Shown: positions 892 to 53,119, numbered from the stretch's first letter. The stretch is 64,000 nt of DNA from a bacterium (GCA_032250835.1 JAVVEA010000009.1:1-64000); one strand, 5' to 3'. A program made the numbers and translations. Notes: a model not told the origin generated them from the letters alone.

Positions 892-1040
892 AATCAGGTG
901 ACAAAATCAGGGGACAGCATACCGATTTCCTGAAAACAGGGGTAGCCCTCGGAAATTGGTATGCTGTCAACGCATATTGGTAATTGGTACGCTGTCACCG
1001 TATATTCGGGCATAATGTCACCGGTTTGCTCACCCGATTT
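892..1040. repeat. Cluster of RAYT-associated ~24-bp repeats, including an inverted doublet
   Basis: Forward copies at 892-903 (truncated) and 905-928 (aatcaggggacagcataccgattt). Reverse copies at ~953-978 and ~982-1006, with degenerate ones to ~1040. 913-930 pairs with 951-968 (one G.T pair). Confidence 0.75.
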
Positions 1041-1180
1041 GTGATCAGTTCTCTCAGCGCTGAACGGCTCGGAGGGAAAAAACCGCCTCAATCTCCCCGG
1101 TGCGGGCTTGCCTTCGGTTTGGCGCTGCTTGTGGTATGCTGGGGCCCAAGAAACGCCGAACCTCCAACAAATACTCCCCT

Positions 1181-1360
1181 TGGACATCTCCCTGTAGTCC
1201 TCTCAGGATCATGGGAACTCACCGCCATCACCTCGTCCTCAAACGCAGGTCCAAATCCTATCCCTTCTCCTGGACATCTCCCCATAGTCCTCTCAGGATC
1301 ATGGGAACCTACCGCCAATACCTGATCCTCAAAGGCAGGTCCAAGTCTTACCTCTTCCGC
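1181..1360. repeat. Degenerate 90-bp tandem repeat (2 units; partial third copy at ~1751-1803)
   Basis: tggacatctccc...tagtcctctcaggatcatgggaac begins at both 1181 and 1271. taccgcca...ccaagtcctacctcttccg recurs at 1751-1803. Confidence 0.8.
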
Positions 1361-1643
1361 TCCATCATCCCTAGATCACTTCGCCCTCAGCTTGGTCGCA
1401 GGGCATTCCTACTGTCTGTGCATTCCTCTGTTTTACAAGTGGCACAAAAGCGGGCAAAATTTCTTCACGGCGCAGCCCAAGAAATCTATGGCTACCTCAA
1501 GATTGACCCCCCTATGGAAAAGATGACCATTGAAGGCATTAAGACGATTCTGGCCTATCGGTTGAAGGTCTACCGGCAGTTGGTCGAAGAAGAGGGACTG
1601 GATAACTTCCTCCTGTCTTCAGAAGACCTAATAGCCGCAATAG

Positions 1644-1667
1644 AATCAGGTGACAGTATCCCTATTT
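1644..1667 (+). repeat. RAYT-associated 24-bp motif, forward copy
   Basis: aatcaggtgacagtatccctattt. Confidence 0.75.
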
Positions 1668-2158
1668 TTATCAGAAAGCTGGCGTCGAGGACCGAAATTG
1701 TGTGTAGAGTTGGGGGTGTCGGTTGGCGGCGTAGGCCGAAAAACTTAATATACCGCCAGCTGATTTTTGCCCCCAAGCGCCGGGCCAAGTCCTACCTCTT
1801 CCGTTCGGTCTTCTATACCCCTTTGGTCATTCATGCCTATTCATCTAAAATTATAAACTTATACATACTTGGGCGCGGCCTGGGCAGTCGGTGCGGTTGG
1901 GCCTTGAGCGCCCAATGAGCAGCCGGAACGCCTCCTCAGGGTAAGAACCCCCGAAAACAATAAGAAAACGGAATTCTTCGGATATTGTTTTATGTAGTAT
2001 CCAATTTGTTTAGATCAACGTATCCAGTATATACATACCAAGAAGGTTCTAGACTTTTGCTCAGCCCACATAACTTTGTTCGCTTTAAAGTTGGATAGCG
2101 TTTGTGTCGGATAGAAGCAGTTAGACCAAACAGCAACCAACCATCAAGAGATACGAAA

Positions 2159-2362
2159 ATGGTAGAAGGAAAAGTTAAGTGGTTCAGCGATGAAAAAGGC
2201 TTCGGCTTCATCGAAGTTCAAGGCGGCGCGGACGTGTTCGTCCACCACAAGGCGATCAACTCCGGCGGCTTTAAATCTTTAAGCGAAGGTCAGAAAGTGA
2301 CTTTCGAGATCGAGCAGGGCCAAAAAGGGCCCGCCGCCGTTAACTTGTCTATCGTAGACTAA
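2159..2362 (+). CDS. cspA: Cold-shock protein
   Basis: [15 protein letters not shown] and DVFVHH RNP motifs; 67 aa. Confidence 0.95.
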
Positions 2363-2370
2363 CGCCTTTG

Positions 2371-2392
2371 AGCGCCCGGCTGGCCGGGCGCT
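2371..2392 (+). terminator. Hairpin terminator after csp
   Basis: agcgcccggc-tg-gccgggcgct inverted repeat directly after the stop; weak U tract. Confidence 0.6.
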
Positions 2393-2405
2393 ATTCTCCC
2401 CAGGT

Positions 2406-2463
2406 AATCAGGGACAGAGTGACCACATATACAGGTGGCATAATCAGGTGACAGTATACTAAT
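2406..2463 (+). repeat. Forward motif copies upstream of the Y1 transposase
   Basis: aatcagggacag at 2406-2417 and aatcaggtgacagtatactaat at 2442-2463. Confidence 0.75.
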
Positions 2464-2515
2464 AAAAGTGTAATCAAAGAGAGACGCTTTAAATTTAAGT
2501 CAGGAAAGAGGGGCT

Positions 2516-3175
2516 ATGGGAAGGTTAGCACGGGTAGTATTGCCAAAAGTTGTGCATCACGTAACCCAACGGGGTGTTCGATCCATGGACATCTTTTTGG
2601 ATGACCAAGATAAAGAAACTTATATGGCGCTGTTAAGGGAGCAATCAAAAAAAGCGGGCCTTAAAATCGTTGGTTATTGCCTGATGGCCAATCATATCCA
2701 CCTGCTGGTGATTCCAAGAACGGCTGATAGTTTAAGGGCTGCCATTTCAGAGACCCACCGCCTATACACGAGATATTTTAACTTCAGGACAAAAGCCCGA
2801 GGGCATCTATTCCAACAACGCTTCCTCTCTTGCCCGCTTGATGACCAAAATTTTATTGCCGCCGCCAGATATGTCGAGCGAAACCCCCTTCGCTTAAAAA
2901 TGGTCAAAAAGCCATCTGATTATCCGTGGTCCAGTGCAAGATATCATCTGGGTTTAGACGAAAGTAACCCGCTGATTGGAAAGATTGATTCTAGAATGCC
3001 TACGCCCAAAGAATGGAAAAAATGGCTGCAAACTGACCCTCAGGAGCTTGATTTGTTACGTAGACATTTTAGGGTTGGCCGTCCACTGGGCAGCGAATCT
3101 TTCATGAAGAAAGCGGAAAAAGTAACCGGTAGAGTGCTCATGCTCAAACCAGCGGGAAGGCCAAAGAAAAATTAG
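2516..3175 (+). mobile_element. REP-associated tyrosine transposase-like protein (Y1/HUH, IS200-like fold)
   Basis: MGRLARVV...HHVTQRG N-terminus, MANHIHLLV HUH motif, GHLFQQRF, YVERNP catalytic Tyr, YPWSS and a C-terminal GRPKK tail. Confidence 0.9.
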
Positions 3176-3192
3176 GATGCTGTCACCTGATT
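3169..3192 (-). repeat. Reverse motif copy overlapping the transposase stop
   Basis: aaattaggatgctgtcacctgatt, inverted relative to 2442-2463. Confidence 0.8.
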
Positions 3193-3204
3193 ATGAGGAG
3201 CAAT

Positions 3205-3621
3205 ATGAAAGGTTCAAAAGATACACAACAGGTCGAAGGTTCCTGCCTTTGTAACAGGATAGGATTTCGGATTACCGGCACTTTTGAAGGCTTCTTTTTG
3301 TGTCACTGCAAACGTTGCCAGAAAGACAGCGGCTCCGCCCATGCGGCGAATCTGTTTTCACAAAGGGCCACCATCGAATGGCTCTCGGGAAGCAGCAATG
3401 TCCAGACTTACAACTTACCCAATACCCGGCATTCTAGGAGTTTTTGCAAAACCTGTGGCTCCGCTTTGCCTAATCTCCAAGGAGAGCTTTTAGTGGTTCC
3501 CGCAGGAAGTCTAGACAGCGCCCCCTCGATAAAGCCGAATGCGCATATTTATTGTAAGAATAAAGCCCATTGGGATGAAGCTTTGGAAAAGGTCCCAAGA
3601 TTCGATGAACTGCCTCAGTGA
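3205..3621 (+). CDS. GFA (glutathione-dependent formaldehyde-activating/CENP-V) family protein
   Basis: GSCLC, CHCKRCQK and FCKTCGS Zn motifs; GAGGAG RBS before ATG 3205. Confidence 0.9.
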   Translation: MKGSKDTQQVEGSCLCNRIGFRITGTFEGFFLCHCKRCQKDSGSAHAANLFSQRATIEWLSGSSNVQTYNLPNTRHSRSFCKTCGSALPNLQGELLVVPAGSLDSAPSIKPNAHIYCKNKAHWDEALEKVPRFDELPQ

Positions 3622-3809
3622 CTCCAGGATAGGAACTTTTTAAAGCCCCGTTCCTTTGGTTAAAACAGCTAACTCAAAAATTTTCTGGGCATGCGTTTAA
3701 TCAGTAGACTGCATTCTAATTTCGCGGATTTTACCGCGCCCAAAACACCCTGCCTTTGCCTCCAAATCGCCCCCAACAACGGATTCTTGTCGCGAAGTAG
3801 ATATACCGG

Positions 3810-4331
3810 TCACCTGTTTTTTAAGAGCTGCGCCAGAGGGCGTCTCCAAAGGATTGCGAGAAAAATCGAAAGCAGACCAAAGAAGAAGGCTCCCAGCACG
3901 CAGCCTGTGCGCACCTGCTTGGCCGTTTCTAACTGGGTCTTTCCCCAGTTCAGCTGCAACTTTCCGGCGGCAAGTTTCTCTTCTCCTGCGCTGATCTTGT
4001 CCTCTCCCTGAGCAACTTGCTGGTCTCCATCGGCGATTTGCTGGCGGCCGTCTTCGAAGCCTTCCCCGCTGTTAAATAGGGTATCCGCAAGCACCATTAG
4101 CTTATTGTCATAAGCTTTTTTATACTCGGATTTTCCCTCTGCCAACTGCATCTTACCGTCCGCCAGCTTGGCTTTTCCCTCCTTGAGTGCGGTCTGTCCC
4201 GCCTTAAGTTGTTTTTGACCATCGGAAATTTGCTTTTCCCCGGCCAGGATTTTTGCATCGAGAATCACATAGCCGCCCACCGACGTTACCGCCAGAAGGA
4301 CCGAGAAGATCAGCCCAAATACCTTCATCAT
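3810..4331 (-). CDS. Hypothetical membrane protein with L-x-x-G heptad coiled-coil repeats
   Basis: Hydrophobic helices at both termini flank QLKAG/ALKEG/KLADG/QLAEG heptads. The stop codon lies in a copy of the 24-bp motif. Confidence 0.75.
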   Translation of the reverse strand: MMKVFGLIFSVLLAVTSVGGYVILDAKILAGEKQISDGQKQLKAGQTALKEGKAKLADGKMQLAEGKSEYKKAYDNKLMVLADTLFNSGEGFEDGRQQIADGDQQVAQGEDKISAGEEKLAAGKLQLNWGKTQLETAKQVRTGCVLGAFFFGLLSIFLAILWRRPLAQLLKNR

Positions 4332-4864
4332 GATGTTTTACTATTGGTTGTATTTTCAACTGACCGGCGCAGGAGCGCTACTCTTTGCTCGAATGAAGCC
4401 TGCTTAGAGCGCAGATTGGCCTGATCGTACCACAGCACCAGGCGCTATCACACCTACTATATTTCGATCACCTGTGGTCGTTGGCTGGGCCTGTGCCAAG
4501 GATACGTTCTTGCTGGATTCTATCAGGCGCTCACGGGAAAGGACTTGCGGATTTTCAGAGGTTTGGGCGGTAGGCGCGGTTTGGGCAGGCAATTGAGGCC
4601 TTACCGGTATTTAAGACGGAGCCTAAAGGGCCGAACCCACAGAGTGGGGGAGGCGGCAAAGGCAAGGGGGGGAAACCCCGTTGCCTAAACCAGAAGGAAG
4701 ACCAGTGAGACAAAAGACGGTTGTCCCTGATTCAAGCACTCTACCTAGCAGGCAGCTGCACCAAGGGGGCTTGTTTGCCGGCTTCTGCTTCGGGCCGCTT
4801 CGTCTTTAAGATAGAGGCTGGGGGAAGCGGGTCGCATCGCGCCCCGCCAGGCGAAGCGCCGCAC

Positions 4865-5266
4865 TCAAGTAGAGGAGAGATCCAGGCGGGCCGGGTCGCT
4901 TTGGCGCTGATATTTAGCGATCAGCTTCTCTAAAGACTCGACCCCAAAGGGCTTTTGGTAGACCTCGGTGGCTCCCATGTCTAGGTAGGCCTGCGTTTCC
5001 TCATGGCTGGTAGACATAACAATGGGGATATCTAAGAAGTTGGATTTCTTGCGGATTTTTTCCAACAAAGTGGTGCCTTTGGCGAAGGGCATTTCCACAT
5101 CCAGGAGGATCAAATCAAAATTTGCATGGGCCTTTAGAAAAAAGTACCCATCAAATACGTCATGGGCCACCACCGACACAATGCTCCGGTTGACCTTGCC
5201 AATCATCTTAGAAATCAGTGAGCTTTGAGTTTTGTTGTCTTCAATAACTAATACGTTCATAGCCAA
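4865..5266 (-). CDS. Single-domain response regulator (CheY-like)
   Basis: VLVIED, LILLDVEMP, IPIVMST and KP motifs. Confidence 0.9.
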   Translation of the reverse strand: MAMNVLVIEDNKTQSSLISKMIGKVNRSIVSVVAHDVFDGYFFLKAHANFDLILLDVEMPFAKGTTLLEKIRKKSNFLDIPIVMSTSHEETQAYLDMGATEVYQKPFGVESLEKLIAKYQRQSDPARLDLSST

Positions 5267-5269
5267 CCT

Positions 5270-5638
5270 TTACTTGCCGGTGGATATTTGCAGGATGCTA
5301 TCAAGGCAGTCCTCAAAGCTTTTTGTGGTGTAGGGCTTTACGAGCTGCCAGGAGACATCCAACTCGTCTAGGTTGAGGACCCTGGCAGAGGATATAATGA
5401 TCGGGATGTTGGCGAAGGCTTCTAAGCTCCTTACCTTTTTAACAAAAGCAGAGCCATCGGCAAAGGGCATCTCATAATCTAACACGATGGCATCAAAGGT
5501 TCGGTGGGTCTGCAAATAGACATAGCCTTCAAAGGCATCGGTGGCGATCATGGATTGGATCTCAAACTTGCTCTTTTCAATGATCTTTTTGATTACGTTG
5601 CTTTGCGTTAAGCTGTCGTCAATGATAAGAATTTTCAT
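5270..5638 (-). CDS. Single-domain response regulator (CheY-like)
   Basis: ILIIDD, IVLDYEMP, IPIIISS and VKP motifs; paralog of the adjacent gene. Confidence 0.9.
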   Translation of the reverse strand: MKILIIDDSLTQSNVIKKIIEKSKFEIQSMIATDAFEGYVYLQTHRTFDAIVLDYEMPFADGSAFVKKVRSLEAFANIPIIISSARVLNLDELDVSWQLVKPYTTKSFEDCLDSILQISTGK

Positions 5639-6503
5639 ATAGATCCAGGTCTATTGGCTTTTCGTTTGGACGATTCCACCGTTGGGCGAGAGGATGCTTT
5701 GGAAAACCGGTTGTCAGCCAACCTCATATCCCAGGCCAAAAGAGGCAGTTCAAGAGCGGGGAAAAGACTGGCGGACCTGACCTTCTCGAAAACTCTAAGG
5801 CATAAAAAAGGCGACTTACCGTTAAATAAAGCCCTGGGCAGAGTTTTAGGCGGTCCCGATTTGCCCGCTAGTCGCTTCCAGGATACAGGCTTTTTGACGC
5901 AAAACCAATCTCTAAACATCGGTCCTGCGTCGAGAGGGAACAGGGCTGCTGGCCAAAAGACCCTCAGCCCTAAGGGGATTTAGACTTGGTGTAGTTGCCA
6001 GGCTTGGTCTTGGTGGCTTTGGTCTTCAAAGGCGCTACAAAACTCCGAAGGGTCCAACAAAGGGCCGGTCACTGGATTTTGGGGCTCCCGTAGGATTTTC
6101 CGCGTTGGTATTTTTCGGCCTTTAAGGCTTCTGCATAGCGCTTTGCACCCTTGCCCAAGCTATGTGGGGCCAGTGGTGGTGAACATAAATTTCATGACCG
6201 CCCGCAAGGTTTTGCCCACCTAGGTTCCGTCGGTTGAGCCCGCCCGGGCCTTAGCTTGACACCAAGCCCCTGAAGCCCGCGCCGCCTCAGAAGCCGGCCC
6301 CCAAAAGTGTATGCAGATATCTGCATTTTGCCTATCCATGATCAATTGATTATGTGACAATGGAGCAGTCCGTCAGGGATGGTTCTCTAGTTCAGAGACA
6401 GGCCGCCCCAAGGATAGAGAACCAACGCAATAACAGCGGGGGAACTCTCGGTTTAGGTTGAGACCAATTCTCAAGGGGAAACCTCTGTCCATAAAACGCC
6501 AAA

Positions 6504-7259
6504 ATGAAAACAAATCGATCCGGTCAAGCATTGGGTTTCAGGGGAATTTCCCTGATGGCCTTGATCTCTCTTTTGCTGGTTTTTTCCTCAGGCTCCCTGT
6601 TAGGCAAGCCCCAGGATTCTTGTGTGGAATGCCACAAAGACCCTAGCTTTTTGGTCACCAATAAAAAGTTGTACAACTATTACCAGGATTGGGAAGGATC
6701 ACCCCACCAACACGCAGAGGTCAGTTGCACCGCCTGCCATATGGGCAATGCCAACACCCCCGGCAAAGCCCAAGCCCACAAGGGGCTGATTAGCCGCTTT
6801 GATTTTAAAGCCATCCCAAAAACTTGCGGTATGTGCCACCAAGAAGTCTTTGCTGCCTACCAACAGAGTGTGCATTTTAAACAAATGTCCAACCGCCAAG
6901 CCTCATCCATTGGGCCCAACTGCATCACCTGTCACGGGATCATGAACAACGTGGGCGTTAGCGTAGCAAGGGTTCAAGAAACCTGTTCTCAGTGCCACAA
7001 CGCGAGTTCTAAAGGCCTAAAGGAGATTCCAAGGTGGGTGGAACAATACTTAAACAAGCTCGCCTCGATCCATCAGTTTTACCGGTACGTCAGCGTCAAA
7101 GGCGAACCAGCCGAAACACAACAGTTTTTAATAAAAACTGATCGAAAACTCACCGAGCTTAACGCCCAGTGGCACAGATTAGACCAGAAGGAAATTCAAG
7201 AGGGCACGGACGCCCTCATGGAATCCCTACAGTCGAGGCGCAAATCGCTTAGTCAATAG
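6504..7259 (+). CDS. Periplasmic pentaheme c-type cytochrome
   Basis: Signal peptide plus five CxxCH motifs (CVECH, CTACH, CGMCH, CITCH, CSQCH). Confidence 0.9.
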   Translation: MKTNRSGQALGFRGISLMALISLLLVFSSGSLLGKPQDSCVECHKDPSFLVTNKKLYNYYQDWEGSPHQHAEVSCTACHMGNANTPGKAQAHKGLISRFDFKAIPKTCGMCHQEVFAAYQQSVHFKQMSNRQASSIGPNCITCHGIMNNVGVSVARVQETCSQCHNASSKGLKEIPRWVEQYLNKLASIHQFYRYVSVKGEPAETQQFLIKTDRKLTELNAQWHRLDQKEIQEGTDALMESLQSRRKSLSQ

Positions 7260-7542
7260 CAACGCTGGTGATTTGAGATGCCTAAAAAAATTTGGGGACC
7301 GAAATCTGGCAAAAGCCAGATAACGGTCACCGGATTTTTTCAGGCGGGTGCCTATGCCAGTGTTGAATCGCTCACAAGTTCAATTTATTGTTGGCTAATT
7401 TTACGGGTGACTTGTCAGGATTCAAGCGCCTTCAAGGAGGGCGACCTGGAGCGCTACAGCCCCAGTAAAGGAGTCCTGACAAATTTCTTGTGTCCGACAT
7501 TGCGGCATTCCCGAACTGGATTAGATGTGGCAAATTGAGGGC

Positions 7543-8259
7543 ATGAAAACTAATAAACGCAAACGCTATCAGTGGCTACTCTTTGGCCTCATGGTGAGCA
7601 TTATCGGCCCTCTGTCCGAGTGGCTGCTTTTTAGCCTCCTGCCCAAGGATTCTGAGCAAGTTCGCTTAATTTCTTACCTTTACGCAGAAATTTCTGCTCT
7701 GATTGTGTTTGGTTTGTTCGGCTATATTCTCGGCAGCTACGCGGACCGAGTCGAGAGTCTGGCGGTGACAGACCGGCTCACGGGGCTTTACAACCGGCAC
7801 CATATGATGTTGCGGCTAGAAGAATTGACCCAATTGCAACAGCGATATGGGGAACATTTTTCGTTGATCATGCTCGATCTAGATCACTTCAAGGCCGTTA
7901 ACGACCAGTTTGGCCATATGGTGGGGGACCAGACGCTTAAAGCCGTCAGCACGACGCTAGCCGACCAACTACGCGATACAGACATCCCCTGCCGCTACGG
8001 AGGCGAAGAGTTTTTGGTAGTCTGCCCCCACACCCACTTGGATGAATGTTACCTCCTAGCCGAGCGCATCCGCGCCGCTATCGAACAACTGGGCCCACAG
8101 GAACTGGGTCACCCCGGCCCCCAGACGCTATCTGCCGGGGTTTTTGAGGTGCAAGAAACCTTTAGCGCAGGTCTGATGACCGCGCTCAACTGTGCCGACG
8201 AAGCGCTCTATCAGGCCAAAAAAGCGGGTCGGAATCGTGTAGCTCGAGGTGCCATTTGA
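7543..8259 (+). CDS. Membrane-anchored diguanylate cyclase
   Basis: Two TM helices, DRLTGLYNR, DLDHFKAVND and RYGGEEF. Confidence 0.93.
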   Translation: MKTNKRKRYQWLLFGLMVSIIGPLSEWLLFSLLPKDSEQVRLISYLYAEISALIVFGLFGYILGSYADRVESLAVTDRLTGLYNRHHMMLRLEELTQLQQRYGEHFSLIMLDLDHFKAVNDQFGHMVGDQTLKAVSTTLADQLRDTDIPCRYGGEEFLVVCPHTHLDECYLLAERIRAAIEQLGPQELGHPGPQTLSAGVFEVQETFSAGLMTALNCADEALYQAKKAGRNRVARGAI

Positions 8260-8650: not shown

Positions 8651-8663
8651 CTGTCACCTGATT
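8651..8663 (-). repeat. Reverse motif core copy
   Basis: ctgtcacctgatt is identical to 3180-3192. Confidence 0.6.
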
Positions 8664-8672
8664 AAATAGAAG

Positions 8673-45178: not shown

Positions 45179-45205
45179 AGCGGTGACAAGAAACTGGGGT
45201 TGGGG

Positions 45206-45230
45206 AAATGGGTACATTGTCCCCGTATTT
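45206..45230 (-). repeat. Degenerate reverse motif copy upstream of the HNH gene
   Basis: aaatgggtacattgtccccgtattt. Confidence 0.55.
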
Positions 45231-45255
45231 TTAAAACGATGATCCAGGAGTTATT

Positions 45256-45969
45256 GTGGGTTCATTTGTTGGAAATGTTTCTGATTTTAAAAAGTATATA
45301 GGTCCTAGACTGAGGAATGTAGTTAACAATTTGGCTCGGCCTTATCGCATTGAAGTGGGGCAATGTCAGATTTGTAGGGCTACACAAACCTTGGAGGCCG
45401 CTCACATTCAGGGACGGGAGAGGACAATCATCATTGATGAGCTTCTAGAGAACTATTTAAATGGGGAGATTGTTACAATAGATTTAGAGGTTTTTGAAAA
45501 CCAGTTTTTTGCTGCTCATCAACCTTTGAACGAGTCGATCTTGATACTATGCAGAGCTTGCCATCGGGAGTACGACAATCAAGCCCAAGTAAAGGATCAG
45601 CCACAACTTACAAACGAGGATGTAGAAGAACTGTCAGAAGAGGCAGGTTACAGCGTTACCAATAGAGAGATTACCGACGATTTCCGGGAATTTGTTTCGG
45701 GTAATTTGCCTTGGGATGAAATTGAAAATCTACTGAACCCTACTTATAGTCGCGAAACCTTTTTGGTTCACTTCCCCATACTTAAAGAAGTTCCTGCTAA
45801 CGCGGATCAGCAGCGGTTGCGAGAATTAGCTCGTGATACAAAGGGTTACGGAAGATGGTCGCCCTTTCCTATTGCACGAGATGGGAGGGTATTTTTGGTG
45901 ACAACTCAATGGTTTGATCGTTGTCGTTCAAGATTTCTTGCTTGGAAAATGCAAATTGAAAACCGGTGA
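45256..45969 (+). CDS. HNH endonuclease-like protein
   Basis: CQIC...LEAAH...LCRACHREYD; AT-rich relative to the hyp genes. Confidence 0.65.
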   Translation: MGSFVGNVSDFKKYIGPRLRNVVNNLARPYRIEVGQCQICRATQTLEAAHIQGRERTIIIDELLENYLNGEIVTIDLEVFENQFFAAHQPLNESILILCRACHREYDNQAQVKDQPQLTNEDVEELSEEAGYSVTNREITDDFREFVSGNLPWDEIENLLNPTYSRETFLVHFPILKEVPANADQQRLRELARDTKGYGRWSPFPIARDGRVFLVTTQWFDRCRSRFLAWKMQIENR

Positions 45970-45983
45970 TCAAGTACCTATTT
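45960..45983 (+). repeat. Forward motif copy containing the HNH stop codon
   Basis: aaaccggtgatcaagtacctattt. Confidence 0.6.
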
Positions 45984-46096
45984 TCTCAAAAAAAAGCCGG
46001 TAAAAAAAACCGGATTTTAGATCAGCGCCCCGGCGCGAAGACCATGGATAGGATCAGGTTGATGGGTCCATTGTCCGACCGGTTTGACGGTCTCGC

Positions 46097-46125
46097 TTGC
46101 TCAATGTACCTACATTTGTTAATAT
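46097..46125 (+). promoter_or_regulatory. brnTA promoter with operator palindrome
   Basis: TTGCTC-17-TAATAT, with aatgta-cc-tacatt in the spacer. Confidence 0.6.
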
Positions 46126-46131
46126 CTAAAT

Positions 46132-46407
46132 ATGGTCGAGTTTGAATGGGACGAAGAGAAAAACAGGTCCAATCAAGAAAAACATCAGGTGGCCTTCGAG
46201 GAGGCTCAAAATGTTTTTCTGGATGCCCATCGGCTGATTATTGAAGACCTGGACCATTCGAATACAGAGGAACGCTTCTACTGTATTGGAAAAGTCGGAG
46301 AAAGCCTGTTGACGGTCCGTTTCACGCTGCGAGGGGAGACCATCCGAATCATCGGGGCAGGCAAATGGCGCAAGGGAAGGAGGTTGTATGAGCAAGAAAA
46401 CCGATAA
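46132..46407 (+). CDS. brnT: BrnT family toxin
   Basis: FEWDEEKNRSNQEKH...FEEA...HSNTEERF...IRIIGA. Confidence 0.9.
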   Translation: MVEFEWDEEKNRSNQEKHQVAFEEAQNVFLDAHRLIIEDLDHSNTEERFYCIGKVGESLLTVRFTLRGETIRIIGAGKWRKGRRLYEQENR

Positions 46408-46702
46408 ATTAGCTTATTCAGACGAGCCCGTTGTCTTCGGGAAGGTCGTCAAAGATAGAATCCCAAAGGGCCAGGAGATTAAGAAAGCGAAGGTCCGCGT
46501 CTTTAAAGAGGATGGTAGTGTTTTTGAGTCGGTTTTTGATCAAATCCGGGTTGATTTCCCTGGCTCAAAAAAAGCGGTCACCGTCCGCTATGACCAGGAT
46601 GTAATCGACTATTTCAAGTCCTTCGGACCGGGCTATCAGTCTAAAATGAACGCCGTTTTAAAGGCCTTTGTGGAACACGAAAAACATAAAACTCCCCGTT
46701 GA
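46388..46702 (+). CDS. brnA: BrnA family antitoxin
   Basis: KKAVTVRYDQDVIDYFK...GYQSKMNAVL RHH domain; overlaps brnT. Confidence 0.88.
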   Translation: MSKKTDKLAYSDEPVVFGKVVKDRIPKGQEIKKAKVRVFKEDGSVFESVFDQIRVDFPGSKKAVTVRYDQDVIDYFKSFGPGYQSKMNAVLKAFVEHEKHKTPR

Positions 46703-46891
46703 CCACCAACATTTCAACCCGGCACTTTGAGGCCGACTACCCCAGGGCAGCCCACCGCCCCGCTACGTTTAGCCTCGTCTGTTTAGGCCTAGCCCACCCC
46801 GCCTGAGATAGGGGGTCCTTGGTATAGGACCCTACCAAAATACTCTGATCGATCACTTCCAGGTTGACAGTTCGTACAGGCTATATAACTA

Positions 46892-46973
46892 TTTTGCATA
46901 TACGAAATAACCACCCCTTTCCTTACCGGTCCGGGGAGTCCTTTGCCTGGGATTATATTTCGTATATACGAAT
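46892..46973. promoter_or_regulatory. Paired palindromic operators upstream of the porin operon
   Basis: ttttgcatatacgaaa (46892-907) and the perfect palindrome ttcgtatatacgaa (46959-72). Confidence 0.55.
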
Positions 46974-46998
46974 CTTTAAACTACCTGGAGACAAAAAT

Positions 46999-48168
46999 AT
47001 GAAAGTTTTCACCTGGGCGCTGACCGCCCTCTTGCTGGCTAGCCCACTGAGCTTAATGGCCCAAGAACCGACTTTAGCAAGCCTAACCGAGGAAATAGCC
47101 CAGCTCAAAGAGCAACAGGAACAATACCGCAGCGAATCAACCAAGGTCGGTGGCTATGCCGAACTGCACTATAACGCAGTCGAAGGCCAAGAGCCGATCA
47201 CCGACTTGCACCGCTTCGTCTTGCTCTTTGAAAAACAGATCGGGCCGAATATCCGCTTCCAGAGCGAACTGGAGTTGGAGCACGCCTTTGTGCAAAGCGG
47301 TGAGGGGGAATTGGAGTTGGAGCAGGCCTTTTTGGAGTTTTCTTTGAGCCGCGAGACCCAAGCCCGCGCGGGGATTCTGTTGGTTCCCTTGGGTCTGATC
47401 AACCAAAACCACGAGCCCAACAGCTTTATGGGTGTCGAGCGCCCAGACTTCGCCAAGGTGATCATTCCTTCTACCTTCTTTGCCGAAGGAGCCGGACTAA
47501 AGGGGTCTTGGGGGCATTCTTGGCAATATCAGGCCTATTTTATGGCCCCACTGGACGCCAGCGGGTTTAGCGGCGCTAGCGGTCTGCGCGGCGGACGCCA
47601 AAAGGCCTACAAAAGCCGAGCCGGAAGTTTAGCTTTGGCCACCCGGCTGCAATATGCCCGCCCCGGCCTGCGCCTGGGCTGGTCTAGCTACCAAGGCAAC
47701 AGCGCCAATGAGGAGGTCAAGAGCGACGCCCGCGACGCTGGGGTTAAACTAGAGCAGGTTCAAGTCAGTTTTAATGCCTTGGACCTGGATTGGAACACTG
47801 CTAACTGGTCTTTGCGGGCCGAGGTGGCCCAAGGGAGCCTGTCTAACAGCGGCTTATTGAACCAAGTGTACGGGGGCCACGTAGGCAGCAGCTTGCAGGG
47901 TTATTATCTAGAACCGGCCATAAAACTCTGGGCCCAAGGGGATTCGACTCTAAAAGGATTTGTGCGTTATGAATCCCTTTCACCCCAGGCCAGCGTCGCT
48001 TCGGGTAGCGTCAACGACGCCTACCAGTATACCCGCACCACCTCCGGCCTGAACTACTGGCCCCACCCCCAAGTGGCCTTGAAAGTGGATATGGGGACCA
48101 AACAAACAGCCCAGACTGGCTCAGCAGCCCAACAGGAATGGAACCTGGGGCTCGGGTGGGTCTTTTGA
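46999..48168 (+). CDS. Outer-membrane porin (OprO/OprP-like beta-barrel)
   Basis: Signal peptide, coiled coil, GGYAELHYN, ELELEH, HEP...VERP and a C-terminal Phe. Confidence 0.8.
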   Translation: MKVFTWALTALLLASPLSLMAQEPTLASLTEEIAQLKEQQEQYRSESTKVGGYAELHYNAVEGQEPITDLHRFVLLFEKQIGPNIRFQSELELEHAFVQSGEGELELEQAFLEFSLSRETQARAGILLVPLGLINQNHEPNSFMGVERPDFAKVIIPSTFFAEGAGLKGSWGHSWQYQAYFMAPLDASGFSGASGLRGGRQKAYKSRAGSLALATRLQYARPGLRLGWSSYQGNSANEEVKSDARDAGVKLEQVQVSFNALDLDWNTANWSLRAEVAQGSLSNSGLLNQVYGGHVGSSLQGYYLEPAIKLWAQGDSTLKGFVRYESLSPQASVASGSVNDAYQYTRTTSGLNYWPHPQVALKVDMGTKQTAQTGSAAQQEWNLGLGWVF

Positions 48169-48728
48169 ATCCTCGCGGATTATTGCTGGCCCTGGGCCTT
48201 TGGGTAGCTCTCGGGGCCCCGGCCTTTGGGCAGGTTTTTGAGGACCCCGATGCAGCGCTGCAATCGGCGCTGCGCTCGGGGGAACAACTAACGCCGGTGA
48301 GTTGGTCTGGGTTGAGCGCTGAGGTCGCAGCGGCCCTAAAGGCCCAATCAGGCCAAGCCCTACGCCGCTCTTGGACCCGCTGCCATCAGGCCCAGTCGGC
48401 CAGCCAGCCGACCGCCTATTTATGTATCGACAACATGATCGGCAAGACCGAACCGATCACCTACTTGGCCCGGATCGCTCACCCCTCCGGAAGATTAGAG
48501 GACTTACGGTTGCTGATCTACCGTGAGTCGGTGGGGGCCGAGATAAGGCACCCGCTCTTCCTGGCGCAGTTCCTGGGCAAAGACACCCAAGCTCCCTTAG
48601 GACTCTCCCAAGATATCCAGGCCATCAGTGGAGCCACCTACAGCAGCCGGGCGGTGGCTCAAGGCAGCCGAAAATTGCTGTGGCTTTACCGTTTGTACCT
48701 TTCCAAACTTTCCACGGAACAACCATGA
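48165..48728 (+). CDS. FMN-binding domain protein
   Basis: Signal peptide, GKTEPITY, YRESVGAEI and ISGATYSS flavinylation motif. Confidence 0.8.
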   Translation: MNPRGLLLALGLWVALGAPAFGQVFEDPDAALQSALRSGEQLTPVSWSGLSAEVAAALKAQSGQALRRSWTRCHQAQSASQPTAYLCIDNMIGKTEPITYLARIAHPSGRLEDLRLLIYRESVGAEIRHPLFLAQFLGKDTQAPLGLSQDIQAISGATYSSRAVAQGSRKLLWLYRLYLSKLSTEQP

Positions 48729-49183
48729 GTTCTCTCCCTCCGGCTCCGCGCAATATACGCCCAGATACTTGGCAGGTGGTCTTATTGATGGGCTCTTTTT
48801 CTGTTTGTCTTTTTAGCGGGTTGGGACTTTGGGCCTTAGCCGAATGGGTTCCCAAAAACCCTTTTTCGGCAACCGGGCATCCCTTAAAAACGCCCCTATT
48901 GGCCCTGCATTTAAGCGGCATGGCCTTATTGCTGATCGGCTTAGGTAGCCTGATCCCCTGGCACCTTCGGGTGATCGTCCGCCGCCCCTTGAACCTAGGT
49001 GGGTTGCACTTGGCCTTGGGGCTAAGCTTTTTATTATTTTCTGGGCTTAATATGTTGGTGGTCTTGCCTGAAGACTGGGCCAACGGGATGCGGTGGCTCC
49101 ACCGGGGGCTGGGGGTAGGGGTGCCGCTGCTGGTAGGGGCGCATTTGAGGCGCTCTAGAGCGGCGATTAAAGTTAAGGTTTAG
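48725..49183 (+). CDS. Hypothetical 4-TM membrane protein (His-containing, possibly heme b)
   Basis: Four hydrophobic helices with His residues; ATGA overlap with the upstream gene. Confidence 0.6.
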   Translation: MSSLPPAPRNIRPDTWQVVLLMGSFSVCLFSGLGLWALAEWVPKNPFSATGHPLKTPLLALHLSGMALLLIGLGSLIPWHLRVIVRRPLNLGGLHLALGLSFLLFSGLNMLVVLPEDWANGMRWLHRGLGVGVPLLVGAHLRRSRAAIKVKV

Positions 49184-49290
49184 CTAAAGCACCCGAAAAA
49201 AGTTTTTGCATTTTTAAATTTTTGGTCCCTGTGTTAGCTTGTAGGCTGCCGAACCCGAATGATCCACCGCCTTTCCTAAGCCAGTATTCT

Positions 49291-50718
49291 ATGAGCAGTC
49301 TGGGCAAGATCTTGATCGTAGACGACGAGAAGCGCTCCGTCGAATCGCTGACCAGAGCGTTGGACCGGGAGTTTGAGGTGCTGGCGGCGAGCACCGCCGA
49401 AGAGGCCATGGCGCTTTTGGACGAGCACAAGATCAAGGTGATCCTCTGCGACAACCGCATGCCCGGCACCTCGGGGGTCGAACTGCTGGCCCAGGTGCGC
49501 CAGCAATGGCCCGATGTGGTGCGCCTGCTGATCTCCGCCTATTCGGACGTAGAAGACATCATCGACAGCATCAACAGCGGGGGGATCTACCAGTTCATCG
49601 CCAAGCCTTGGAACCCCAACAACTTGATGGTGATTTTAAAGAACGTGGTGATGCTCTATGACCTGCAAAAAGAAAATGCCCTGCTGGTTACCGAGACCCG
49701 CCTGACCACCGATGCGCTGCGCGAACACAACCTTACGGTCAAGAAGAAGCTCAAGGAAAACTTCCATATCAACAGCATCTACCGCTCGCCCGAATCCCCG
49801 CTGAACCAAGCATGCGAGCAGTTAATCAAGGTCGCGCCCTACGATATTTCGGTTCTGTTGACCGGTGAGTCGGGCACCGGCAAGGAGATGTTCGCCCGCG
49901 CGCTGCATTATAACTCGGGGCGTGCCGAGAAGCCCTTTGTGGCCGAAAACTGCGCCGCCTTAACCGACGAATTTTTGTCTAGCGAGCTCTTTGGCCATAA
50001 GAAGGGTGCCTTTACCGGGGCGGTGACCGACCATGTAGGCTTGCTCGAACAGGCCGACGGCGGGACGGTGTTTTTAGACGAAATCGGCGACGTAACGCCG
50101 GGCTTTCAGTTGAAATTACTGAGGGTTTTACAAGAAGGCGAATTCCGTCCCTTAGGCGGCAACCAAAGCCGCAAGGTAGACATCCGCATCGTCGCGGCGA
50201 CGAACCGCAACCTTGAAGAGGACGTCAAGGCGGGCCGGTTCCGTGGCGACCTCTATTACCGCTTGGCCACCGTCTCGATCAACCTACTGCCCCTGCGCCA
50301 GCGCCGGGTAGATATTCCTCTAATTGCCGAGCAGGTCTTGGCCAATTCCATGAGCATCTTCGGCAAACAGGTCAAGGGCTTCACGCCCGAAGCCTTGGCC
50401 ATGATCCAGGCCTTCGATTGGCCCGGCAACGTGCGGGAGTTGCAAAACGAGGTGCAGCGCTGCTTGGTCCTCTCGGCAGGCCCTTGGATCGAAGTCGAGG
50501 ACCTCTCGCCCAAACTCCGCCAAAAAGCCCCGGCCCAGGTTTCAAGCGGCAGCCTAGCCGAGCGCGTCCAGCAACTAGAAGAACAGATGATCTTAGACGC
50601 CATGTCCCGCCACCACCAAAACAAAACCAAGGTGGCCGAGGAACTGGGCCTCTCCCGCGTGGGCCTGCGCGCCAAGCTGGAGCGGTACCAGTTGGGTGAT
50701 GGGGTGGGGGCGAGTTGA
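49291..50718 (+). CDS. hoxA: Sigma54-dependent response regulator HoxA/HupR
   Basis: REC domain, GESGTGKE, GAFTGA, WPGNVREL and C-terminal LGLSRVGLRAKL HTH. Confidence 0.88.
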   Translation: MSSLGKILIVDDEKRSVESLTRALDREFEVLAASTAEEAMALLDEHKIKVILCDNRMPGTSGVELLAQVRQQWPDVVRLLISAYSDVEDIIDSINSGGIYQFIAKPWNPNNLMVILKNVVMLYDLQKENALLVTETRLTTDALREHNLTVKKKLKENFHINSIYRSPESPLNQACEQLIKVAPYDISVLLTGESGTGKEMFARALHYNSGRAEKPFVAENCAALTDEFLSSELFGHKKGAFTGAVTDHVGLLEQADGGTVFLDEIGDVTPGFQLKLLRVLQEGEFRPLGGNQSRKVDIRIVAATNRNLEEDVKAGRFRGDLYYRLATVSINLLPLRQRRVDIPLIAEQVLANSMSIFGKQVKGFTPEALAMIQAFDWPGNVRELQNEVQRCLVLSAGPWIEVEDLSPKLRQKAPAQVSSGSLAERVQQLEEQMILDAMSRHHQNKTKVAEELGLSRVGLRAKLERYQLGDGVGAS

Positions 50719-50859
50719 GGGGGGTGGGTGAACCGACTTCCTATAGTGGGACCCAATGGGTATAACTTAAGGGGCGGATACTTTAGCAATAAACTTTAAG
50801 ATTCATCCGACAGTGGTATCTATCGTTGTGGATTGAGGCCCATTCTAGCTAAGGCGGTG

Positions 50860-50883
50860 AAATAGGTATGCTGTCACCGGATT
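50860..50883 (-). repeat. Reverse 24-bp motif copy (left end of accessory block)
   Basis: aaataggtatgctgtcaccggatt; its reverse complement matches 53060-53083 at 22/24 positions. Confidence 0.8.
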
Positions 50884-51077
50884 ATAGACCTATCAATCCC
50901 CAGAAACCTCCCCGACCGATTCCGCCCGGACAGGGCGGGCTGAACACTGGGGAAGTCAAAATAACAGGTATCTCCGTCATAACAGCCCTTGAACTCCGCG
51001 CGCAGGCGCAGATCGGCGGCCTGGGTCGAGGCAGAAGCCAGTAGGAGGAGCAGGAGCAAATAAGGGGTGCGGATCAT
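50874..51077 (-). pseudogene. Truncated thermonuclease (SNase-like) gene
   Basis: Signal peptide, CYDGDT and RFLGID, then an abrupt end at the motif-derived TGA. Confidence 0.6.
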
Positions 51078-51186
51078 GGGCGGTTTTGCTAAAGCGTTTA
51101 GGTACATACTGCCTGCCCTCCGCCCCTTCGAACAGGACAAAAAAGGGCAACGGGCCGCAATCCTGCAAATTCTACCTGGAGAGCAA

Positions 51187-52071
51187 ATGCCCAAAACCAG
51201 CAGCCTAACCAAAGACATCCCCGAACCCTTCCTACGCCAGCGCCGCAATATGATGCTGATCTCGGTGCTCTTGATTGCCATCGTATTTTATGGCAAGAAC
51301 CCCGATCAAACCGTCAGTCTTTCGGGGCTCACGTTCAAAATGAGTCTTTGCCAGGTCATGCTTTGGGGCTTATTCTTTTTGGTTTATTTCACCTGGCGCG
51401 CCTGGCAGCGGATTGACTTCGCGCTGTTCACCATCACCCCAGAAGACCAAAACGCCGTTCTTAGGGGCTTGGTAAATGCGGGATTTGCTTGTCATCCAAA
51501 CACCAATCTAAATGAAGTCTCTGTGGAACGCTATTCTTTGGACCGCAGCCGGGTTTCTTTTATGGCTAAAGTCGGAGAAAACGGCTTGCGGCAAGATTGC
51601 ATGATTTCTACTCATCAAGACAAGGCCGAGATTAACAATAAATTGCGCACCTTTTGTAGAAGAACTGCAAAGGGCACCCGCTTGGCTGCAAAATGCCCCG
51701 AATTAGCTGACGTAAGCGAGTTCTGGGGGCTCATTTTGTCCGAGGAGAGGGATTCACCCAATGCCATAATTCGAAACGACATTGCCCCAAAGCTCGAAGT
51801 TTTCGACTTGATGCGCAAGACGCCCAGGACCAAACAATTCTGGAAGCACCCATATTTTTCCGATTTTCACCTGCCTTTTATTTTGGCCTGGTTCGCTATG
51901 GGCCTTACGTTGGGTAAGCTCCTTCTTTTGGCTACCGACTGCAACTGGTTTTGGACGCTGACCACTGGCGGTTTTTTGGTGATGGCTTCAGTGGTTGCGG
52001 CTGTTCTGTTGCTGATCCGATCGGAAATCTGGTGGCAGTACACCATTTTCAAGGAATCAGCGCCCAAATAG
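51187..52071 (+). CDS. Hypothetical membrane protein
   Basis: GGAG RBS; two N-terminal and two C-terminal TM helices around a soluble domain. Confidence 0.7.
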   Translation: MPKTSSLTKDIPEPFLRQRRNMMLISVLLIAIVFYGKNPDQTVSLSGLTFKMSLCQVMLWGLFFLVYFTWRAWQRIDFALFTITPEDQNAVLRGLVNAGFACHPNTNLNEVSVERYSLDRSRVSFMAKVGENGLRQDCMISTHQDKAEINNKLRTFCRRTAKGTRLAAKCPELADVSEFWGLILSEERDSPNAIIRNDIAPKLEVFDLMRKTPRTKQFWKHPYFSDFHLPFILAWFAMGLTLGKLLLLATDCNWFWTLTTGGFLVMASVVAAVLLLIRSEIWWQYTIFKESAPK

Positions 52072-52149
52072 ATTTCGTATTTTCTTCGACAAGGTGGTTA
52101 ACCGGCGCATTGCCCTTCAAGCCTCAACTTGAACAAGCCTCAGCCCCCC

Positions 52150-52266
52150 TCAATGCACCGTACACTGCATACAAGGATCAAAGCTGCGGACCACCATCCA
52201 GAGTTCGGGGGCCGGTTGGTCGCCGCTGTATTTTAGGCCCTCTAAGGGCATTTCGCAGGGGCCGGG
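52150..52266 (-). pseudogene. Diverged duplicate of the hoxC 3' end
   Basis: Aligns to 53583-53699 with 7 substitutions by hand count; encodes PGPCEM...RSFDPCMQCTVH*. Confidence 0.9.
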
Positions 52267-52298
52267 AGGCCAGATTGCCCACCGGTCCAACCAAGCCT

Positions 52299-52697
52299 TC
52301 ACGCCCCCACCTCGTACTCCAGCGCCGCCTTGGCCAAAAACTCTGAGCGGTTGAGGCCTTGCTTCTTGGCCTTTTCGTCGATCTGTTCCAGCTGGTTGCT
52401 GGGCAGACTGATATTGACCCGAACGGTCTTGCTGTATCCGGCCACCAGCTTGGGGTTGACCGGCACCGGCACCAAGTGTTGGCCCGCCTCCAGCCCCTTG
52501 CGGACCTGAGCGAAGGTGGAGGGCTCGGGCACGTCCTTTTCGTCGGCCAGCCAATGGGCCAGCGCGTCTTCGGCCATTTCGACCGCTTCTTCCCAGGTTT
52601 CGCCGTAAGAGATACAGCCCGGCAAGTCGGCGAAGGTGACCGTGAACCCGCCCTCGGGTTCTTCGGTGAAGGTTGCCAGGTAGTGTAATGATTTCAT
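52299..52697 (-). CDS. hicB: HicB family antitoxin (C-terminal RHH)
   Basis: VTFADLPGCISYGETWEEA, RVNISLP and NRSEFLAKAA. Confidence 0.92.
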   Translation of the reverse strand: MKSLHYLATFTEEPEGGFTVTFADLPGCISYGETWEEAVEMAEDALAHWLADEKDVPEPSTFAQVRKGLEAGQHLVPVPVNPKLVAGYSKTVRVNISLPSNQLEQIDEKAKKQGLNRSEFLAKAALEYEVGA

Positions 52698-52752
52698 CCT
52701 TTCCCTATCTTTCAGGAGGTTTATAGTGACCTCTCAGCCACTTTTTCGGGGC

Positions 52753-52929
52753 TTACTTGAGACCCGCTGCCTTGAGAATGCTGTTTGCCGTCCCTATGGG
52801 GACGTCCCCTTTGTGCCGGGGGACGGTGATGGGCCGCTCACCTTCCTTAATCCACTTGGTATGCTTCGAACCCTCGTCCTTAGCCCATCCGGCTTGTTTC
52901 AGCATTTTTTCGATCTCTTTGACTTTCAT
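52753..52929 (-). CDS. hicA: HicA family mRNA interferase toxin (58 aa, absent from the ORF track)
   Basis: Hand translation: MKVKEIEKMLKQAGWAKDEGSKHTKWIKEGERPITVPRHKGDVPIGTANSILKAAGLK. Confidence 0.9.
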   Translation of the reverse strand: MKVKEIEKMLKQAGWAKDEGSKHTKWIKEGERPITVPRHKGDVPIGTANSILKAAGLK

Positions 52930-52962
52930 TTGTGTCTTAGTAGCTGTTTAGAATATGCACTA

Positions 52963-53004
52963 ATCATACACACAATACACACCAAATATCAAGAAGAATA
53001 CACA
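52963..53004 (-). promoter_or_regulatory. hicAB promoter with repeated operator half-sites
   Basis: TTGATA-18-TATGAT on the minus strand; TGTGTAT occurs three times. Confidence 0.6.
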
Positions 53005-53059
53005 CTCACCACCGATTGCCCAGAATGGAGAACCTATGCATTCTGTTTGGACCCTTTTA

Positions 53060-53119
53060 AATCAGGTGGCAGCATACCTATTTAAATAATCAGAGAAATC
53101 CGGGGACAGTAACCTATTT
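53060..53119 (+). repeat. Two forward motif copies (right end of accessory block)
   Basis: aatcaggtggcagcatacctattt (53060-83) and aatccggggacagtaacctattt (53097-119). Confidence 0.8.

Follow-up and report, generated by a model that had tools for sequence, protein, structure and literature searches.

Our analysis of a bacterial DNA stretch of 64,000 nucleotides (GCA_032250835.1, JAVVEA010000009.1:1-64000; hereafter the window) very probably reveals a system of repetitive extragenic palindromic sequences (REPs), their hairpin-forming doublets (REPINs) and a REP-associated tyrosine transposase (RAYT). Such a REP/REPIN-RAYT system, or 'REPtron', would here belong to a distant and widespread RAYT clade. 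The window is positions 1-64000 of contig C43 in an assembly of 3.66 Mb and 43 contigs that is 97% complete (G000). The single-copy gene at 2516-3175 would encode a domesticated Y1/HUH single-strand DNA transposase, and its cognate repeat appears to be a unit of approximately 24-30 nt with the core GGTGACAG. The active form of this repeat is presumably an inverted doublet (a REPIN) or a unit with its own 5' half repeated behind it in inverted orientation; both forms would produce a hairpin when the DNA is single-stranded. If the enzyme acts like E. coli TnpA-REP and the TnpA proteins of IS200/IS605, it would bind this hairpin and cut and rejoin the DNA beside it, so that intergenic DNA would be invaded by the repeat and not by the gene. 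Copies would survive or insert mostly in fast-changing, AT-richer spacers that collect toxin-antitoxin (TA) and defence genes; both the reason for this preference and the enzyme's part in it we infer. Because the copies sit in such spacers they look like cassette borders, and the simplest interpretation is a colonisation of cassette arrays and other high-turnover spacers by REPINs.

The protein encoded at 2516-3175 carries the HUH motif in NHIHLL and the catalytic tyrosine (Tyr119) in ARYVERNP. It matches the Pfam domain Y1_Tnp (PF01797) with 42.9 bits and is the sole Y1_Tnp match in the assembly. A large protein collection contained 2086 homologues at E<=1e-3, named 'transposase' and once 'REP-associated tyrosine transposase', with source records from SAR324, Deltaproteobacteria, Poribacteria, Lentisphaeria, Elusimicrobia and Geobacteraceae. 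Residues H60, H62, Y119, N123 and P124 are invariant in 26 homologues, and so is a C-terminal patch, G188-P190-G192-F196. When a profile of 26 homologues was compared with the PDB, the best match was TnpA-REP (4ER8, E 3.5e-4), with ISDra2 TnpA at E 0.38. The AlphaFold2 model (pLDDT 92.1) likewise had as its top Foldseek match 4ER8_A, a structure of the REP-associated tyrosine transposase from E. coli in complex with a REP hairpin (E 7.8e-8, target TM 0.69), followed by the IS608 and ISDra2 transposases (E 3e-5 to 1e-4). Since both the profile and the fold searches rank 4ER8 first, the protein is to be regarded as a distant RAYT and not as an IS200/IS605 transposase, specifically as a distant clade of the REP_Tyr_transpos family. 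An earlier note on this DNA, made from the sequence alone, had named the gene RAYT-like, and this identification is borne out.

The gene is bracketed by inverted copies of the repeat, as had also been noted before: the plus-strand copy stops 53 nt before the ATG and the minus-strand copy overlaps the stop codon. In relatives from the same family the orthologues share 45-63% identity with the protein, and those of five genomes (G015, G017, G008, G012 and G026) are bracketed in the same inverted manner by repeats that keep the core GGNGACAK and co-vary in their flanks. These repeats read AATCAGGTGACAG[T/G]ATAC in G015 and G017, AGATC[C/T]GGGGACAGGAT in G008, TTCGGGGGACATAATACTCATC in G012 and AAAAGGGGACAGGTTA in G026. 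In a scan of metagenome contigs, 586 of the 600 stretches listed encoded a relative of the RAYT, so that at least 586 exist; the best 80 were analysed, and the flank test covered the 71 of these best 80 loci with at least 130 nt on both sides (homologues of 40-51% identity). An inverted match of at least 14 of 16 positions between the two 200-nt flanks was present at 60 of the 71 loci, compared with 6 of 71 in the direct-orientation control. The core G[GT]GACA[GC] occurred, among 70 metagenome loci, upstream on the plus strand in 58, downstream on the minus strand in 50 and in both places in 48; the corresponding numbers for the opposite strands were 6, 6 and 2. The median distance from core to start codon was 56 nt, and in 21 longer loci with the core the repeat was mostly confined to the side of the RAYT gene. 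The inverted bracket is the defining architecture of the REPtron and is valid for the whole clade. We therefore consider the link between repeat and enzyme well supported by the brackets here, in relatives and in metagenome homologues, and the motif is the cognate repeat of the gene. The analysis thereby documents a RAYT clade that is distant, widespread in environmental metagenomes and accompanied by repeats with a conserved core, GGKGACAS.

The repeat itself is far more frequent than chance would allow. Its consensus, AATCAGGTGACAGYATACCTATTT, has five matches in the window at <=3 mismatches and none in 100 shuffles, and the 14-nt core of the consensus has ten matches at <=2 mismatches where 0.30 are expected. 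A profile built from 45 seed copies taken from the whole G000 assembly gave 74 nhmmer matches in G000 at E<=10 and 48 at E<0.05; nine of the 48 lie in the window (Table 1), where the tandem pair is followed by a third, partial copy at approximately 53137. The 17 positions listed in the earlier note can be divided accordingly. Good copies were found at eight (905, 953, 1644, 2442, 3169, 50860, 53060 and 53097), half or decayed copies with E values of only 0.5-8 at 892, 982, 7325, 8651 and 45206, and nothing at E<=10 at 2406, 3799, 4721 and 45960, which show 7-12 mismatches to the consensus; a good copy at 52026, found with the nhmmer profile, had been absent from that list. The statement that the hydrogenase and transporter operons are free of the motif holds, with no match at E<=10 across 8.7-45.2 kb. 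Throughout G000 the repeat is extragenic: only two of the 48 copies lie in genes called from codon usage (87.3% of G000 is coding by this measure) and seven in any open reading frame (ORF) of >=100 amino acids (89.5% of G000 covered).

Hairpins appear to be made by the doublet, or by a unit plus an inverted half-site. The doublet in the window (886-1005) folds as single-stranded DNA with -24.4 kcal/mol (z -5.0), and doublets on contig C5 and in the relative G015 reach z values of -4.9 and -11.5, respectively. An inverted copy of the unit's own 10-nt half-site lies within 75 nt downstream of 12 of the 48 copies and upstream of none of them. We also considered an internal hairpin of the single unit (AAAT-C-AGGT / ACCTATTT), which folds in one copy (53054-53088, z -2.2), and rejected it, as it does not fold in the two gene-side copies and is not kept in variant copies. 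Exact 19-mers number two among the G000 copies listed and 34 of 88 in G015, mostly in tight doublets. The repeat population of G000 is small (approximately 48 copies), largely decayed and looks old. Rfam at gathering thresholds gave no match in the window.

Motif copies at <=2 mismatches were counted in 41 genomes, among which kin are not independent. G000 holds 30 such copies, G015 88, G016 32, G017 29, G004 16, G012 8, G014 6 and G009 5; other family members have 0-4 copies and all 22 genomes of other families 0-1, and the reversed pattern had 0 matches in G000. Among family genomes with an orthologue of >=45% identity, five of six have 8-88 copies and the sixth, G008, has a variant motif, while 10 of the 13 family genomes that lack such an orthologue have 0-4 copies. 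An exact-match scan of the genomes of 185,579 species returned 30 stretches. Those with multiple copies bear titles such as 'SAR324 cluster bacterium' and 'Deltaproteobacteria bacterium', and single matches in unrelated phyla numbered 7, with approximately 9 estimated by chance. Because multi-copy stretches occur in SAR324/Deltaproteobacteria and other matches stay at chance level, the motif family is lineage-restricted. The lineage of G000 is probably SAR324-type.

Copies are unevenly placed within G000. The 48 copies form 21 clusters (gaps <5 kb), compared with a mean of 43.2 and a minimum of 35 in 500 trials of random intergenic placement. Windows of 3 kb centred on the motif have a G+C content of 51.3%, compared with 54.8% for the genome and 53.1% for windows centred on random intergenic positions (Mann-Whitney p 4e-5 per copy and 1.3e-3 per cluster). 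On the largest contig (667 kb) copies at E<0.05 are absent, with a single match at E 5, and copy orientations are mixed across G000. A Pfam survey of 150 of the 153 ORFs around 18 loci outside the window (three short ORFs were dropped) identified TA and defence-type genes beside or between copies. They comprise a frameshifted PIN gene and a helix-turn-helix (HTH) plus DUF6932 pair on C1; CopG, a TIR protein and HigB with HTH on C14; TumE, CopG and ParE on C38; HicB on C39, on C40 and in the window; HigB at 75k of C43; Fic on C9; and DUF433 on C13. On C41 an 847-amino-acid PLD protein and a 551-amino-acid protein lie between two doublets, and on C5 the same position is taken by a five-gene block that has no Pfam matches. 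The earlier description of copies at the edges of AT-richer accessory genes thus agrees with both the neighbours and the lower G+C content. Its gene labels fared unevenly: TauD, GFA, HicB and HicA were recovered by Pfam, which also confirmed BrnT/BrnA in the window, and 'HNH', 'nuclease remnant' and 'heptad protein' found no Pfam support. A GFA cassette shared beside the RAYT gene by G000 and G015 was considered and rejected, since the three GFA genes have diverged and do not represent one shared cassette.

Table 1. Features of the window. Copies at E<0.05 lie at 903+, 949-, 1641+, 2439+, 3167-, 50858-, 52023+, 53057+ and 53094+.
Feature	Position	Strand	Basis
REP cluster (half copy, inverted doublet, decayed copy)	889..1003	mixed	nhmmer
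Half REP copy in this cluster	889-903	+	nhmmer
REPIN-like inverted doublet in this cluster	903-932, 949-975	+, -	nhmmer
Decayed REP copy in this cluster	982-1003	-	nhmmer
Single REP copy	1641..1670	+	nhmmer E 5.4e-6; consensus match
REP copy upstream of RAYT gene (left bracket arm)	2439..2463	+	nhmmer E 4.6e-4; 4 mismatches to 24-mer
RAYT-type Y1/HUH transposase gene (219 amino acids)	2516..3175	+	Pfam, profile, AlphaFold2/Foldseek
REP copy over RAYT stop codon (right bracket arm)	3167..3195	-	nhmmer E 3.6e-5; consensus match
GFA-family gene directly past the 3' REP of the RAYT gene	3193..3621	+	Pfam GFA 92.5 bits
8.4-kb interval from hypD to the convergent NiFe-hydrogenase large-subunit gene	45179..53582		relatives' spacing; Pfam
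Possible decayed REP relic, 25 nt past hypD stop, on the left edge of the inserted region	45203..45232	-	6 mismatches; nhmmer E 8.1, alone non-significant
REP copy directly past sigma-54 activator gene	50858..50886	-	nhmmer E 2.8e-6; consensus match
REP copy	52023..52053	+	nhmmer E 6.3e-4
hicB (TA pair 52299..52929, between REP copies)	52299-52697	-	HicB_lk_antitox 85.9 bits
hicA (same TA pair)	52753-52929	-	HicA_toxin 55.4 bits
Two tandem REP copies	53057..53122 (53057-53084, 53094-53122)	+	nhmmer; consensus match

Several further elements were observed around the clusters. The block on C5 (locus L014, G000:C5:38000-48500) is 5.4 kb long, with five ORFs of 503, 222, 405, 222 and 209 amino acids; it is framed by the two REPIN-like doublets and by two 228-bp direct repeats (97% identity), and its interior holds a direct repeat of 1,024 bp, also at 97% identity. 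In the window, the ORF at 1100-1918 has atypical codon usage and contains a direct repeat of 87 bp in tandem (1181-1267 and 1271-1357, 85% identity). It weakly matches DUF6538 (19 bits), an N-terminal domain of phage-type integrases, and may be what is left of an integrase next to the REP cluster. A second dispersed repeat at 53169-53550 of the window is far more abundant than the 24-nt motif, with approximately 95 blastn matches on 19 G000 contigs. It is G+C-rich, contains long internal inverted repeats and consists of modules of approximately 100 bp at 77-95% identity. This second repeat often adjoins the 24-nt motif (at 53057/53094 in the window and on C14, C39, C13 and C41), does not flank the RAYT gene and has no Rfam match in the window. 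It also occurs at contig ends (C8:1-108, C1:22-136 and C1:123185-123273), where the assembly may break at it.

The earlier note had suggested that motif-bounded genes be checked for strain variability, and a synteny comparison with family-level relatives showed that they vary. The gap between hypD and the hydrogenase gene measures 400 bp in G013, 372 bp in G007 and 8.4 kb in G000. The first part of the G000 region contains u237, BrnT/BrnA, u434, an FMN_bind protein, a sigma-54 activator and the REP copy at 50858, and the rest contains u334, the REP copy at 52023, a copied hydrogenase 3' end, HicBA, the REP copies at 53057 and 53094 and the second repeat. At the site of the C39 cluster, the gap between the Pyr_redox_2 and PLDc_2 genes is 23 bp in G003, G007 has a different insert of 5.7 kb, and G010 has 580 bp up to an ABC-transporter gene. 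Here G000 carries a 2.4-kb block with HicB, whose left edge is a decayed doublet and at whose right edge a REP copy ends 22 bp from the PLDc_2 stop. The motif-bounded genes are thus missing in relatives at both of the two testable sites, with copies at or near the block edges; they are insertions at hot spots, and the link of the motif to variable accessory genes is real. At the syntenic sites the relatives contain no motif at all, nor was an empty site with an intact doublet found among them. The genes flanking the clusters on C14, C38 and C41 were non-collinear in the two to four relatives compared. Among sequencing runs, one with a weak match was found (0.10 of sampled words); its contigs of 238-467 bp, at approximately 90-96% identity, included none that bridged a motif-bounded block, and within the parts covered neither joints nor empty sites nor circles were seen.

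Several motif-adjoining blocks of G000 are framed by direct repeats of 124-274 bp of neighbouring sequence; on C1, C5 and C14 the end of the first direct repeat is no more than 25 bp away from a motif copy, and four of the 24 low-copy local direct-repeat pairs in G000 enclose motif copies. In the window a direct repeat of 128-129 bp (93% identity) is found at 52139-52266 and 53571-53699. The latter copy belongs to the NiFe-hydrogenase large-subunit gene, whose 3' end it forms, the former is an orphan fragment in an ORF at 52150-52554, and together they frame a block of approximately 1.3 kb with hicBA, REP copies and the second repeat. Similar long direct repeats frame motif-associated blocks on C1, C5, C14 and C17. 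One idea is that a Campbell-type integration of a circle carrying a gene end lies behind these long direct repeats. The 5.7-kb insert of G007 (L059, G007:C10:8000-20000, approximately 4042-9721 of the locus) marks the Pyr_redox_2/PLDc_2 site as a recurrent insertion hot spot. Furthermore, the sigma-54 activator of G000 (49222-50718) matches L052:15621-17069; in G007 it lies approximately 8 kb from the hydrogenase genes on their other side, and it was not found in the stretch of G013 that was compared, so that the regulatory neighbourhood has been rearranged.

Integrons do occur in relatives. The integron integrase IntI (TIGR02249, cut-off 265 bits) was detected with 463 bits in G015 and 448 bits in G016, the relatives with the most and second-most motif copies; the best match in G000 reached 67 bits. 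The attC sites of the IntI-proximal array in G015 are canonical (TGCTAAC...GTTAGCA, 79 nt, -20 kcal/mol), and this array lacks REPs. REP-rich arrays of G015 consist of mostly co-oriented cassette-type genes (glyoxalase, GNAT, VapBC, MazE-PIN and MNT-HEPN, together with GFA, HicAB, ParE and methyltransferases), and their attC family is the same as that of the IntI-proximal array. The attC signature YTAAC-N-GTTTCAG occurs seven times in 89 kb of G015 loci, three of these beside IntI, and has 10 loose matches in the 3.66 Mb of G000, none of them at REP clusters. No TAAC...GTTA-ended (R''/R'-type) hairpin was found in six spacers of the window. A strict attC hairpin scan returned nothing and a relaxed one 15 scattered matches in G000, none at motif clusters; the relaxed scan, which did not use an attC covariance model, recovered 1 of approximately 4 true attC sites in the IntI-proximal control and is too insensitive to exclude attC.

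Three hybrid sites in G015 (L031:1399, L032:4890 and L032:1525) align with an intact attC (L047:150-275) up to ...GGATTTGCCRGGAATTT (in one of the three only to ...GGATTT), after which a REPIN doublet follows; the 3' half of the attC (L'-R') is gone and the doublet stands in its place. These sites could reflect REPIN insertion into attC loops and may stem from a single event that was later copied. A further cassette of genus g5 (G015, G017) contains a fused MNT-HEPN gene of 290 amino acids, is 1.1 kb long and is present at at least four loci (L050:755-1627, L094, L095 and L096) at 86-88% nucleotide identity, and its ends look like attC cores. Two of the four copies have a REP 65-190 bp past the end of homology, and two have none within approximately 2 kb. 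Because homology stops short of the motif or the motif is absent, the boundaries of this cassette are independent of the motif. One of the MNT-HEPN copies adjoins an IntI fragment at a contig start (G015:C95).

A number of findings weigh against a REP/REPIN-RAYT system. A single REP unit folds no better than shuffles (z +0.7 to -2.6) and bears neither a GTAG nor a CGTC tag, in line with the earlier remark that the motif is not a GTAG-type palindrome; 36 of the 48 G000 copies are not in hairpin form, and approximately 48 copies are few for a REP family. On the side of the protein, the NCBIfam equivalog NF047646 (REP_Tyr_transpos) is matched with 63 bits, below its cut-off of 80, and a search of the PDB with the single sequence found no relative. 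G016, G014 and G009 have 5-32 motif copies, yet no close orthologue was found in their assemblies, which are in fragments and between 68-93% complete. Neither activity nor an excision product nor recent transposition was seen. The distribution of copies is also the opposite of that in Pseudomonas, where, according to Loper et al. (2012; PMC3390384), each genome has at least 250 REP copies, the older core is marked by them and strain-specific genes are located in 'REP deserts'; here the copies are few, clustered and in AT-richer accessory DNA.

One alternative is an integron-like cassette system, put forward in the earlier note, in which recombination by the RAYT at the motif would capture, excise or shuffle the genes between two copies. 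We regard this as very unlikely, even though it would explain why copies are clustered (21 clusters against 43.2 expected), often at gene-sized spacings with TA and defence genes between them, and why bounded blocks with copies at their edges are absent in relatives at both testable sites. It would also fit C38, where two TA pairs are each framed by REP(-)...REP(+) with a doublet between them, as well as G015, where doublets separate co-oriented cassette-type genes and replace the attC 3' half in three aligned sites, and the lack of IntI in G000. However, no cassette with ends set by the motif turned up at two places, the sequence common to the flanks of the 48 copies is almost confined to the motif, and copies occur in mixed orientations. 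The DNA moved by known RAYTs and IS200/IS605 TnpAs is hairpin-ended and on one strand; no such same-strand pairs frame genes here. The MNT-HEPN copies lose homology 65-190 bp short of the motif or lack it (two of four), the repeat in the 21 longer metagenome loci is found mostly only beside the RAYT gene, and motif-rich relatives possess true IntI and attC sites, an established way to move such cassettes. Gene capture by the enzyme is therefore not supported, and part of the evidence speaks against it. A second explanation, which we consider possible though somewhat unlikely, treats REP hairpins as passive landing pads at or beside which other processes insert foreign genes, thereby splitting doublets; homologous or illegitimate recombination, IntI in ancestors and hairpin-targeting insertion sequences (ISs) are candidates. 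The decayed doublet at the left edge of the C39 block, the different insert of G007 at the same site, and the 124-274-bp direct repeats (ending within 25 bp of the motif on C1, C5 and C14, with 4 of 24 local pairs enclosing copies) all point in this direction. So does a TA operon in Photorhabdus that has a 24-bp palindrome duplicated on its two sides, which a 2026 paper on TA acquisition attributes to a Tn3 res site (PMC13617665). This explanation has to contend with relatives that are motif-free at the sites, with the lack of empty sites bearing an intact doublet, and with long direct repeats that it leaves unexplained and that are present at a minority of clusters. A further, rather unlikely possibility is that REP/REPIN doublets invade the hairpins of cassette seams and then act as joints for an IntI-independent turnover of TA and defence genes, with exchange that would proceed via the RAYT or via hairpin-prompted recombination. 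The G015 hybrid sites, the long direct repeats and the REP-framed TA pairs of integrase-free G000 keep this idea alive and, if true, it would amount to a second, HUH-linked way to build integron-like arrays.

Two further explanations concern the identity of the gene and its repeats. That the gene with its two repeats is an ordinary active IS of the IS200/IS605 type, the other copies being its miniature inverted-repeat transposable elements (MITEs) or solo ends, is suggested by the Y1_Tnp domain and by IS608 and ISDra2 TnpA as next-best folds. We nevertheless judge it highly improbable, given that G000 has only one copy of the gene, that nothing beyond 25-40 nt of repeat recurs in the flanks of the 48 copies, and that TnpA-REP comes first in the fold search as well as in the profile search; moreover, the ends of IS200/IS605 elements lie on the same strand, whereas the repeat ends are inverted here. 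Almost no weight can be given to the motif being an integron attC site or the operator of a regulator. Its position between TA genes, as is frequent for attC, and the integrons of relatives would fit the former. Against this stand the lack of IntI in G000 (67 bits against a cut-off of 265), the missing TAAC...GTTA-ended hairpin in the window spacers, the absence of the lineage's attC signature from motif clusters, and the IntI-proximal attC sites of G015, which differ in sequence and carry no motif. Furthermore, the motif is found on either strand and to either side of genes, and RAYT genes of many lineages are bracketed by it.

We return to the REP/REPIN-RAYT system as the favoured explanation. 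Should the repeats help to make or break seams, this would bear on how TA and defence islets form in integrase-free genomes and on the role of domesticated RAYTs. As it stands, annotators should not take such repeats for a new cassette system. Among the titles and passages returned by a literature search, none described cassette borders made of REPs or REPINs.

Most knowledge of REP/RAYT systems comes from Proteobacteria, where the repeats are abundant and mark the stable core genome. The E. coli REPs, including bacterial interspersed mosaic elements (BIMEs), and TnpA-REP (4ER8) resemble the present system in the single-copy Y1/HUH enzyme and in the inverted copies of a dispersed extragenic repeat, and TnpA-REP is both the best fold and the best profile match of the protein. 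The two enzymes differ in that they share only 15% identity in the structural alignment and in that the 4ER8 chain has 165 residues, whereas the RAYT described here has 219 amino acids with a conserved C-terminal part. The E. coli repeat occurs in hundreds of copies, and unlike it the unit described here has no GTAG tag and forms no hairpin alone. IS200/IS605 elements such as IS608 and ISDra2 share the Y1/HUH fold and presumably the single-strand hairpin chemistry, but the present gene is a single immobile copy with inverted flanking repeats, and the repeat spreads without it. Integron arrays and clusters of attC sites lacking integron integrases (CALINs) are similar in that small TA, GNAT, glyoxalase and GFA-type genes are split by a recurring palindromic repeat, and in G015 the repeat even sits inside real attC cassette arrays. 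Unlike integron arrays, G000 has neither IntI nor an attC signature at its clusters, orientations are mixed, and the repeat is fixed in sequence, not just in structure, and tied to a Y1/HUH enzyme instead of a tyrosine recombinase. According to Bertels et al. (2017; PMC5581495), RAYTs are single-copy, and their flanking 16-mers are abundant in Groups 2 and 3 (57 and 140) and few in Groups 1, 4 and 5 (12, 14 and 31). The REPINs of Pseudomonas (Bertels and Rainey, 2011) and the Group 2 and 3 RAYTs appear alike to the present system in the inverted doublet as the hairpin unit, in the repeat-flanked RAYT gene and in the repeats that co-vary between orthologues.

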